A stretch of DNA of 25,482 nt from the IMG/VR virus record IMGVR_UViG_3300030376_007365, positions 1 through 25,482 of that record; one strand, 5' to 3'. This document shows, in pieces, positions 4,918-7,773 of this stretch (the first letter of the stretch is position 1; every line of letters starts with the position of its first letter). A program made the translations under genes and the position numbers. This DNA comes from a virus (taxonomy: Duplodnaviria > Caudoviricetes). A model generated the notes under the pieces. The model made no database searches. It was not told the origin of the DNA and saw nothing but the letters and a program-made list of their open reading frames with translations.

Positions 4918-5034
4918 TTATCCTCCTATGATTGCGACCAACCATGCAAAAATCATCCACATCCAGGTCAAGGTTGCAGCGATAAACATTGCGGTAAATA
5001 TTATTTTATTCATTATTTTATTAAGTAAACTCAT
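4918..5034 (-). CDS. small membrane peptide, 38 aa (not in ORF track)
   Basis: MSLLNKIMNKIIFTAMFIAATLTWMWMIFAWLVAIIGG; ATGA-coupled to the upstream gene; its 3' end supplies the AGGAGG SD of the next gene. Confidence 0.7.
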   Translation of the reverse strand: MSLLNKIMNKIIFTAMFIAATLTWMWMIFAWLVAIIGG

Positions 5035-5501
5035 ATGTGTTTATGTGTAGCTGTTTGTAGTATTTGATCCCGTGAAAGAGTGCGGGATGAGTATTTTTTA
5101 ATGGTTTCTACAGGTATTAAGTATGCCTTTTTTGGTTGGGTGTCACCCTTTCCTGTGAAGATCCGCAGGGGTGGATTCAACGACACAATCAAGTCTTTTA
5201 ACTTCCTTGGAGTAATAAAAATAAACTCCGTTTTTGTATCGAAGATCCACCAATCTGCGGTTGTTCCCATGAGTCCGGATGGCTTGCCATACATCTCCAC
5301 TTCCACCACCAGGTTGCCACTATAATGCGCCTTCCAATCTTGTTTAACCTCGTATCCTTCCTTTGTATTTGCCAGGAAGAAATCAAAGCCTGTGAACTTG
5401 CCCGGTATTGCTATGGGCTTGTGTCCTAAGGATTGGAAGAACGCAATTAGCTGGTCTTCACGTTGCTTGCCAATGTCAAGACTCGTGTCGAATTCAGTCA
5501 T
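5031..5501 (-). CDS. PD-(D/E)XK-fold nuclease-like phage protein
   Basis: FDF...YEVKQD...SGNLVVEVE...GKPSGL..TTADWW pattern. Confidence 0.7.
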   Translation of the reverse strand: MTEFDTSLDIGKQREDQLIAFFQSLGHKPIAIPGKFTGFDFFLANTKEGYEVKQDWKAHYSGNLVVEVEMYGKPSGLMGTTADWWIFDTKTEFIFITPRKLKDLIVSLNPPLRIFTGKGDTQPKKAYLIPVETIKKYSSRTLSRDQILQTATHKHI

Positions 5502-5841
5502 GGACGCTCACCTCTACCCACGTCTCTTCTTCCTTGTAGGTTTTGACTTTTTCCTGCGAGACTTCGAGGGTGATCGCTTGAGGGTCATCTTCTGGTATAA
5601 TGTCCGCAGCCCGGAGCGAATCGACAAGGTACTTGACTCCCCCAACGAGGTTGTCCGGGTCGCAGATTCTGACTCGTTTCGAGATAATGCGGACTCGATG
5701 GCGATCATCGCCTCCTTCTGCATTTCTCTCTTCTCTTTTACTCGCGCCCACCGATTCATACCCAGAAGTGTGTTCAAGGAAGGGGTTCGTTTCTTCACGC
5801 ACAGCGTTATCTTTTCTCCCTTTTCCATCACTAATTGGCAT
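5494..5841 (-). CDS. RusA-like Holliday junction resolvase, catalytic C-terminal half (frame B)
   Basis: RICDPDNLVGGVKYLVDSLRAADIIPEDD matches the RusA catalytic pattern D-x-D-N...K...D.L......DD. Confidence 0.8.
   Translation of the reverse strand: MPISDGKGRKDNAVREETNPFLEHTSGYESVGASKREERNAEGGDDRHRVRIISKRVRICDPDNLVGGVKYLVDSLRAADIIPEDDPQAITLEVSQEKVKTYKEEETWVEVSVHD
5514..5831 (-). CDS. overlapping ORF with RusA-like N-terminal motif and basic tail (frame A)
   Basis: ITLCVKKRTPSLN...W.R.K.K resembles the RusA N-terminal strand, PSxN motif and helix; the start (GTG 5831 or ATG 5828) abuts the upstream TAG. Confidence 0.6.
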   Translation of the reverse strand: MMEKGEKITLCVKKRTPSLNTLLGMNRWARVKEKREMQKEAMIAIESALSRNESESATRTTSLGESSTLSIRSGLRTLYQKMTLKRSPSKSRRKKSKPTRKKRRG

Positions 5842-6310
5842 TTATATTTCTTCCCACCAGGTTAATCTTGGATGCCATCTCCGGGTCGCATTCAAGCAAA
5901 TCATGGATTTTATTAACAGTGTGAGATATGTTGCTATGATTTCGGTCGAAGACCTTGCCCAACTCTTCAACCTTATATCCTTGTTTGCGACTATAGAAGA
6001 TTGCACATTGACGGGCTAAAGCCACATCCTGTGTGCGTTTCCTGCTTTCTATTTCTGCGACACTTACACCAAGAGTCTTGGCACATATCTCTTTAATATC
6101 ATCAATGGATACCATGCATTCTCTCTGTGTATATATAGTGATGTCAGGGTCACTCTGATTATTCATATCCTCACCTGCCAATGTAGCCACTAATTGCTTC
6201 ATCGCAGCATGAAGTACCACAACCGCGCCTTCAAAATTCTGATTACTGATATGATCTTCAGCATACCGCAGTACTTTATCCATTTCGTTTATTTTTAATC
6301 GATTAGCCAT
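5831..6310 (-). CDS. protein with DnaA domain IV-like (C-terminal HTH) DNA-binding domain
   Basis: IDDIKEICAKTLGVSVAEIESRKRTQDVALARQCAIFY...ELGKVFDRNHSNISH matches the DnaA C-terminal signature; no AAA+ domain. Confidence 0.85.
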   Translation of the reverse strand: MANRLKINEMDKVLRYAEDHISNQNFEGAVVVLHAAMKQLVATLAGEDMNNQSDPDITIYTQRECMVSIDDIKEICAKTLGVSVAEIESRKRTQDVALARQCAIFYSRKQGYKVEELGKVFDRNHSNISHTVNKIHDLLECDPEMASKINLVGRNINAN

Positions 6311-6534
6311 TCTTCACTGCTCCTTCCCTCAGTTCGTAACCATTTGTTAATTTCACGTTTATCCCATGCAAATCCACGTCCACCTCGACCAGTCCCTCCA
6401 TCAATGATGTAACATGTTAATCCTTCATCCTCATGGAATTGATCCAGCGAGGTCTGCGATTTGAATCCAAGTAGTTTTAGTGCTTTCTTGCTGGTGATAA
6501 GATACTTCTTTGATCCTTGATTCCTGCCCATCAT
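6295..6534 (-). CDS. excisionase/AlpA-like winged HTH protein
   Basis: LITSKKALKLLGFKSQTSL...FAWDKREINKWL pattern; small basic protein. Confidence 0.6.
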   Translation of the reverse strand: MMGRNQGSKKYLITSKKALKLLGFKSQTSLDQFHEDEGLTCYIIDGGTGRGGRGFAWDKREINKWLRTEGRSSEEWLID

Positions 6535-7508
6535 GCCACCTCCTTTTGATTAGCCCAACGCAAGGCATTGGAAAATTCATACATCGATATGGTCTGCCTG
6601 TTTCGGATCTTCCTAGTCTCAATGTTATGCTCCTTAATTATCTTGTAAACATAACTTCGACTGACACCGAACTTCTCGCTAGTCTTACTAATGGACAAGC
6701 GATTCTCTGTGAAAGGCGTGCCAAGATTTAATGTTTTAATATCATCCGAATAGCCCGGCCATACATCGGTACGCAAACATTCACCATAGATTTTAATCGC
6801 TTCAAGCACACGGGGTACTTCACGCTCAATATCATTGTTATCTATTGTGTAACATGCAGTTGCATATGGTGCAGACTTCTCGACAACCAAGAACACAAAC
6901 TGCTTGGGTCTTTCTCCCATTGCTCGTAGTCCAGTCATGTAGAATGCAGCTTGGAATGCATATCCAAATTGACGAACGCTTTTGGCAAATCCTTTCTCGC
7001 TTGCATCCATCGTAGTCTTTAAGTCCAACACGATACCACTATCCTTGTTGTACACGTCAGGACGGACTTTGCATGGTGTGCCTTCGATGTCGAAGAACCC
7101 GGTATGTTCAATCAGACTGTTTGCATCATACAACAGATTCTTTGCCATTGGATGTTGCAACACACTAGCAGCTACATCCATGCACATCACATAATCGGAT
7201 GGTGGTAACCATCGCTTGCCTGGGTTAGCATCCTCCATCTCTGCAAATGCTTCCTTGTATGCGTTCGTCCTGCTTGAGTTACCATCAATCTCTGCTGGTT
7301 TACATCCATACTCAGTATCAGTTAAGTGTGGTTCAAGCACTGCACTATGAATCATTCCACCATTCAATAGGGCAGGGCTACTTGGCGTGGGGAACTTCAT
7401 CGAATGCTTCACCTTGAGTGGGCAAGAGCCGAGCAATTGTCTTGCTCGACTCGAACCCAACGCTGGATCAGCATGATAAGCCTCGTTAGTTATGCCATCT
7501 CTAAGCAT
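6531..7508 (-). CDS. RecE/exonuclease VIII-like PD-(D/E)XK exonuclease with C-terminal HTH
   Basis: ITNEAYHA..ALGSS, GGMIHSAVLEP, CKVRPD, LDLKTT, YAFQAAFY and VWPGY motifs; likely start ATG 7508 with AGGAGG SD. Confidence 0.88.
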   Translation of the reverse strand: MLRDGITNEAYHADPALGSSRARQLLGSCPLKVKHSMKFPTPSSPALLNGGMIHSAVLEPHLTDTEYGCKPAEIDGNSSRTNAYKEAFAEMEDANPGKRWLPPSDYVMCMDVAASVLQHPMAKNLLYDANSLIEHTGFFDIEGTPCKVRPDVYNKDSGIVLDLKTTMDASEKGFAKSVRQFGYAFQAAFYMTGLRAMGERPKQFVFLVVEKSAPYATACYTIDNNDIEREVPRVLEAIKIYGECLRTDVWPGYSDDIKTLNLGTPFTENRLSISKTSEKFGVSRSYVYKIIKEHNIETRKIRNRQTISMYEFSNALRWANQKEVA

Positions 7509-7773
7509 CACCCACCTCCTCATCTTTAATTAAAACTACAGGAAAAGATGTTCTTTGTAGTTCATTAGAACCATTAGCAACCTTTGTGGTCATGGTAATA
7601 CTTTGGTTAATGCACTTTAACTCTGGATAAGTAAAATGCACTTTCCTTGGATCACCACCATCATGTAAATACTTGTGGATTAAGTGGCTAATATGTAGCA
7701 TGTCATCCACATTCTGTTTACTTTTCCTAAATGAGTACCTTACAGGCACTTGATGTATTTCTAATACCGCCAT
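7501..7773 (-). CDS. hypothetical protein, 90 aa
   Basis: TGATG-coupled to the SSB-like gene; fills the gap in the operon. Confidence 0.65.
   Translation of the reverse strand: MAVLEIHQVPVRYSFRKSKQNVDDMLHISHLIHKYLHDGGDPRKVHFTYPELKCINQSITMTTKVANGSNELQRTSFPVVLIKDEEVGDA

Follow-up and report, generated by a model that had tools for sequence, protein, structure and literature searches.

Two superposed reading frames in uncultured viruses probably encode the two halves of a RusA-like resolvase

How might a RusA-type resolvase be produced from a locus in which its front part and its catalytic core are read in two different frames of the same bases? The RusA fold is a four-stranded mixed sheet with two helices, and the RusA dimer cuts four-way junctions symmetrically with Mg2+. 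PMC1636454 describes RusA as one chain of about 120 residues that forms a homodimer, gives D70, D72, N73, K76 and D91 roles in catalysis, and names S13 and N15 as DNA contacts. The window, the whole 25,482-nucleotide stretch of DNA analyzed here, is a virus record of 25 kb whose genes include those for an SU10-type capsid and for an integrase-family protein, and the sequencing runs with the best matches to the locus are marine metagenomes. An initial annotation proposed that two overlapping ORFs of the window, A and B, are either a dual-coded pair making a two-chain RusA or the parts of a -1 recoding event. The locus contains the following features.

5841-5494, minus strand: ORF B, 115 residues from an ATG start; a disordered leader and a predicted RusA C-terminal catalytic half
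5831-5514 (GTG, 105 residues) or 5828-5514 (ATG, 104 residues), minus strand: ORF A; a RusA-like N-terminal part and a polar, basic tail
5685..5813, minus strand: A residues 6-48; strand, PSLN turn (5783-5772), Trp27 and a long helix ending with Ile44 and Leu48
5674..5700, minus strand: doubly selected junction; B strand 48-56 (HRVRIISKR) and the A helix end (IESAL) on common bases
5587..5661, minus strand: B catalytic motif residues D61, D63, N64, K70, D74 and D85; putative RusA equivalents
5701..5841, minus strand: B leader, residues 1-47; the -1 reading of the A front half, with an ATG that overlaps the end of the upstream gene
5514..5684, minus strand: A tail, residues 49-104; the +1 reading of the B core, Ser/Thr-rich and then basic
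5831..6310, minus strand: upstream gene, DnaA C-terminal helix-turn-helix (Pfam PF08299, E 6e-16)
5031..5501, minus strand: downstream gene, function unassigned (phrog_13596, E 1e-15), with an ATG that overlaps the B stop

The initial annotation had placed both ORFs and their sequences correctly, and A is nested entirely within B in an overlap of 318 bp. It started A at GTG 5831, which is present; the start retained in relatives is ATG 5828. Each B codon starts one base ahead of an A codon, and the third frame holds many stops. The stop of the upstream gene, TAG (5833-5831), falls between the B start and the A start. The flanking genes include a DnaB helicase, a DUF3799 PD-(D/E)XK protein and an SSB-like gene. 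The DUF3799 PD-(D/E)XK-like protein (6531-7523, minus strand) has a C-terminal helix-turn-helix at residues 274-299 that scores below the Pfam cut-offs. Two long antisense ORFs, 5392-5865 (+) and 5600-6019 (+), also run across A and B. Of 173 loci, 100 have no stop over 270 nt in the antisense frame that is in register with B; the same holds for only 18 among 43 diverged representatives, and this openness is therefore probably a by-product.

The same dual-frame layout is found in more than 100 related viral sequences. A scan seeded with B recovered 45 viral loci, which are 64-99% identical to it. One ends ahead of the motif and was left out; each of the 44 scorable loci, two of them truncated at the 5′ end, has A and B open throughout the overlap and 5-13 stops in the third frame. 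With A alignments as query, the scans extended to loci of 36-57% identity that share this layout. Because these distant loci were selected on A, a second scan used B patterns only. It located an A-type front in the +1 frame at 62 of 62 distinct viral loci (from the best 80 of 159 matches) and at 64 of 64 distinct metagenomic loci (from the best 80 of 209 matches, three too close to a contig end being left out), and at none of these 62 and 64 loci in B's own frame or the third frame; split members were the source of the patterns, and some sequences are common to the A profile and the scanned sets. An in-frame RusA was sought among the relatives and none was found. B-frame identity among relatives with the same offset spans 33-99%, and the distance from the A Pro to the B Asp is 110 nt in 28 representatives, 122 nt in 15 and 107 nt in two more distant ones. 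The loci are related, and their counts are not counts of independent events.

Stop statistics and contigs agree with this distribution. Synonymous codon resampling in 43 representatives predicts 59.9 B-frame stops over the A front half, where none is seen, and 119.7 A-frame stops over the B core, where 11 are seen, all in four loci. Three single-chain controls have 5-10 stops in the equivalent off-frames. An indel error, which the initial annotation wanted excluded, does not account for the layout: a contig from X1, a run that may represent the source sample, is identical to the window over 5503-5868, and a contig of run X2, from a separate study, covers 5463-5868 with two substitutions and no gap. 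The sole indel listed across four runs is an in-frame 3-nt loss at 5829. Contigs from the RNA libraries of two runs cover parts of the locus and attest its presence only, carrying no information on transcription or strand. The dual-frame locus is real and conserved, is not an assembly error, and is open beyond chance.

Some loci and database entries depart from the common form. In L184 and L194 (near 1590-1660), the second catalytic Asp of B is replaced and one residue is inserted, with both frames still open. In L183, L185, L246, L285, L286, L294 and L308, B extends 30-50 codons past its usual end into the next gene. The singleton database proteins P0001 and P0004, which switch from the B leader to the A tail or from A to a B end without the DxDN, are probably sequencing indels or broken copies. 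Three equal-score matches (L407, L408 and L410) lie about 39.8 kb apart on one 105,714-base metagenome contig; this repeat spacing equals the viral contig behind L318, which suggests a concatenated assembly.

Selection along the overlap was measured in pairs of loci chosen by flank divergence, and values are means of 20 pairings of about 42 pairs. Stop-neutral fourfold sites differ at 0.29 in the flanks, 0.18 in the A front, 0.075 at the junction and 0.116 in the B core, which is the suppression of synonymous variation that had been proposed as a check alongside the open frames. First-position Arg/Leu sites, which are synonymous in B and mostly so in A, served as the control for local homogenisation and differ at 0.11 in the core versus 0.15 in the flanks (27/198 versus 269/1944 in one pairing). 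The combination of suppressed fourfold sites with Arg/Leu sites near the flank rate indicates that the A tail is constrained beyond stop avoidance, towards polar residues. Judged by these substitution patterns, both frames are under amino-acid-level selection across a wide virus family.

The catalytic residues are located in ORF B. B matches the RusA-like PHROGs 34/1682 (E 3e-4), and a phrog_34 match is found in 37 of 42 B cores. Neither ORF matches Pfam PF05866, which is weakly matched by 5 of the 42 B cores (best E 0.003), and a PDB sequence search with the B profile did not find RusA. D61, N64, K70, D74 and D85 are invariant and D63 is nearly so in 42 members; D61, D63, N64, K70 and D85 would correspond to RusA D70, D72, N73, K76 and D91. 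The Asp 15 residues after the Lys is present in 172 of 173 loci, and the Arg-rich stretch ahead of the DxDN has Arg at -5 in 43/43 and at -3 in 40/43 representatives. B modeled without A is confident over residues 48-113 (pLDDT about 90-95) and consists of three strands and a helix preceded by a low-confidence leader. Among 48,161 chains, its best match is 1q8r over residues 52-118, with 65 residues aligned at rmsd 3.0 and Z 5.1, and unrelated folds tie with it. The model is without the N-terminal strand and long helix that are found in the single-chain model. B is predicted to fold like the C-terminal half of RusA, with all of the catalytic residues.

B also has a beginning of its own. Its frame is open for at least nine codons upstream of the A PS in 52/52 representatives, and the third frame in 5/52. 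In the window's clade the A start abuts the upstream gene stop and most B starts overlap that stop, and in distant clades B starts well upstream of A with a conserved leader. In one 31-locus clade the differences by B codon position are 979:553:2816, a bias inflated by the choice of this clade by its B-leader motif, and frame A has stops in 27 of the 31 loci. The GenBank record BK063671.1 has a separate ATG and Shine-Dalgarno-like sequence for each ORF. A Shine-Dalgarno match or coupling is found for B in 33 and for A in 29 of 43 representatives; in two of the 43, the range examined holds no ATG, GTG or TTG for B. An internal B ATG lies about six codons before the A Pro in L092, L096, L098 and L103. 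L098 and L103 have only this later ATG and none at the upstream stop, and in these two it looks like a compensating start.

ORF A appears to supply the missing front. Its P16, S17, N19 and W27 are invariant in 42 aligned members, themselves picked partly by that motif. The RusA likeness that the initial annotation had ascribed to A is absent from Pfam and PHROGs (0/42 members), an Atlas search with A gave no usable match, and the likeness is seen only against single-chain relatives. A aligns to 106 single chains weakly and in the right register (hhalign 11.5%), and the A profile reaches 10 bits in 1 of 120 single chains. The single-chain protein L448 scores 29.9 bits against Pfam RusA, above the cut-off of 22.8; the A profile matches its residues 14-38 (11.1 bits; hhalign 55%, E 1.2e-4) and the B profile its residues 72-120. 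Over its first 48 residues, A corresponds weakly, and in register, to the N-terminal part of single-chain RusA (strand, PSxN turn and helix). Since the A profile matches the L448 N terminus and the other chains weakly, homology of the A front to the RusA N-terminal part is likely, not proven.

The A tail extends at least 40 codons past the DxDN in 46/52 representatives and in 58/62 viral and 55/64 metagenomic B-found loci. Stops in the B leader or the A tail had been named as evidence against dual coding; the leader has none, and the tail is shortened in a minority (6/52 representatives, in three of these directly after the helix). In a test for selected hydrophobic positions, most tail columns tend towards polar residues and only two give a mild positive signal, so no folded tail is claimed. 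The basic tail may be helpful yet dispensable.

Co-folding of A(1-62) with B(40-115), with a 42-row alignment each, scored 0.44 versus 0.01 for the best control, with partner pLDDT of at least 68 and at least 96% of contacts shared between runs. The mark used was reached by 116/157 solved and 2/215 mismatched pairs. Because both of these mismatches scored 0.60 or below, where only 18 solved pairs passed, the support is weak, and split-gene halves can pass by their likeness to solved RusA. The co-fold that had been suggested as a check thus separates the pair from its control and gives a weak indication that A docks on B. Taken with the junction described below, the probable reading is that A and B are translated separately and together make up a RusA-fold Holliday-junction resolvase.

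An unlikely alternative is that both proteins are made and that B is active or dimeric alone, with A acting as a regulator, an inhibitor or a separate DNA-binding protein. All catalytic residues are within B, its core is modeled confidently by itself, and the tail of A is long and basic, with no family matched by A. However, B would have to work without an N-terminal strand and long helix and with a disordered leader, while A retains exactly these missing elements, including the Ser and Asn described as DNA contacts in PMC1636454. Among 126 loci there is no B without A.

The junction bears on the choice between two chains and a frameshifted fusion. Its bases encode both the last turn of the A helix and the central strand of B. 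With B residues and local codon use held fixed, and in representatives below 70% identity, A has Leu at B codon 52 in 43/43, where 22.0 are expected, and is hydrophobic at B codon 48 in 43/43, where 18.4 are expected. B keeps Arg, Val/Ile, Ser and Arg across the same bases, with Arg56 in 43/43 representatives. The A helix end and the B strand are selected on common bases, so a single -1 fusion cannot hold both. The geometry points the same way: of the 117 single chains scored, 116 have 44-47 codons between the conserved Trp and the first Asp, versus 25.7 or 29.7 in split loci, and an A-B fusion would fall 15-21 residues short of single chains.

Programmed -1 frameshift genes, such as IS3-family orfA/orfB, dnaX and the phage tail chaperones G/GT, have a conserved shift site and make the fusion as their product. 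If the real enzyme were an A-B fusion made by programmed -1 ribosomal frameshifting or by transcriptional slippage near 5690-5750, the locus would share their order, with the upstream part in frame 0 (A front) and the downstream part in frame -1 (B core). A few lineages are without an obvious coupled B start. The A/B pair differs from these genes in its total overlap, in the collision of needed residues on the same bases and in having no conserved site. The junction in the window contains no canonical -1 heptamer, as the initial annotation had observed; heptamers occur in 7/52 representatives, spread over four positions, and 45/52 have none. An A_AAA_AAR lies 20 codons ahead of the DxDN in 5/52 representatives. 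RNA folding at 5640-5740, computed for the window only, is no better than shuffles (z -1.15), and RNA-library contigs show no 1-nt indel, though such contigs drop rare variants. The geometry, the base collision, the absence of a conserved shift signal and the open, conserved beginning of B favor two chains over a frameshift, which makes the recoding option of the initial annotation improbable and its dual-coded option the favored one.

Still more doubtful is a RusA-fold complex of A and B whose substrate would be a different branched DNA (a flap, fork or packaging intermediate) or which would do no more than bind DNA. The Asp-to-Lys spacing in B, 9 here and 7 in most relatives, is unlike that of RusA D70-K76. 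Against this, the catalytic Asp, Asn and Lys residues and the Arg-rich stretch before the DxDN are invariant or nearly so, and the gene sits in a replication and recombination module. Finally, a decayed rusA or assembly indel with frames open by chance has virtually no likelihood: an open B leader is not rare in one locus alone (P about 0.19 for the window's nearest relative), but this reading, which the initial annotation had also set aside, is ruled out by the 44/44 open relatives with an identical offset, the stop depletion, the 62/62 and 64/64 B-found loci, the gap-free independent contigs, and purifying selection on both halves.

In the two-chain reading, A would supply the first strand, the S-x-N turn that contacts DNA and the long helix; the remaining strands, the second helix and all of the catalytic residues would come from B. 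Both starts would be used, in the window by coupling to the stop of the upstream gene. By analogy with the RusA dimer, the active form would be A2B2. The nearby DnaB helicase, DUF3799 PD-(D/E)XK protein and SSB-like gene suggest that A2B2 resolves junctions in recombination-dependent replication. The arrangement may go back to a single, ancient loss of 3n+1 bases from the linker of a single-chain rusA, a loss that a start farther upstream then made good by opening frame B. On this view, one half of each protein would be ancestral and the other half overprinted.

The comparison with known systems sets the pair apart from plain RusA, since motif and fold are RusA-like and the one-chain feature fails. 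E. coli RusA (PDB 1Q8R, 2H8C, 2H8E; PF05866; PHROGs 34, 1682) shares with B the Arg-rich stretch, the D-x-D-N, the Lys and the Asp 15 later, and with A the S-x-N turn, and the B model overlays 1q8r 52-118. It differs in that these elements are here spread over two fully overlapping frames with about 50 extra residues each, neither of which reaches the Pfam RusA cut-off. The closest cores are those of single-chain phage RusA-like proteins (L112-L117, L119, L448, P0277-P0396; hhalign 99% to B), which surfaced in the same scans as the split loci. These proteins have an NLxGGxK motif in common with the window's clade and the RusA fold over the whole chain (for one relative, pLDDT 96 and a Foldseek match to 1q8r at E 2.5e-5). 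Unlike the split loci, they carry front and core in frame, with 15-21 more residues between and stop-closed off-frames. In a tree of 42 split and 10 single-chain cores, the split cores lie on one side of a branch with support 83/24, a result compatible with one origin of the split as well as with several.

Spanins are membrane proteins and, to our knowledge, not two halves of one ancestral domain. They nevertheless offer the closest parallel for a complex encoded by overlapping genes: the abstract of PMC6139136 describes embedded spanins (lambda Rz/Rz1) as overlapping phage genes whose products form one complex, with embedded, overlapped and separated layouts. A and B differ in that both appear to derive from one enzyme chain. 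The literature covered, which comprised listings and the starts of abstracts and left most subscription journals outside, contained no report of a dual-frame RusA; the main text of PMC3711429 contains neither "RusA" nor "resolvase".

A B profile search returned 1,790 clusters at E up to 0.001, which may include ordinary RusA, and 350 clusters at 50% identity and E up to 1e-10. The A profile found no A-type front in its own frame among the 148 new clusters listed from this search. An A-motif scan of bacterial and archaeal genomes gave three matches, none with the dual-frame layout, and tblastn of B cores against GenBank phages gave only a single-chain gene, two weak RusA-like matches, or nothing. 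BK063671.1, whose recorded host is Methanomicrobiales, has the same layout (L443, 546-890 and 592-879), and L447 is a dual-coded relative of it. The L443 and L447 B leaders start with the short N-terminal motif of DUF1064 proteins in L449-L453 (1201-1245; five loci from the same scan, three of them read), and by this likeness a DUF1064-type gene may have been the source of the frame B start. Only frame A of BK063671.1 is annotated (vir555_00024), and the catalytic frame was missed. The dual layout has probably escaped notice through annotation of a single frame. Gene callers mostly report one half of the pair: B is matched by 140 database proteins and A by 8.

On balance, one frameshifting deletion seems to have split the gene of a single-domain enzyme into superposed genes whose half-overprinted products would reassemble as an A2B2 resolvase, a layout kept across hundreds of uncultured-virus clusters, one listed with an archaeal host, and missed by one-frame annotation. 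Long gene overlaps are usually explained by overprinting of a new protein on an old gene. If the reading is true, the A/B pair would represent another route to gene overlap, fission in place with halves that need each other, and a rare case in which two halves of one domain constrain the same bases.
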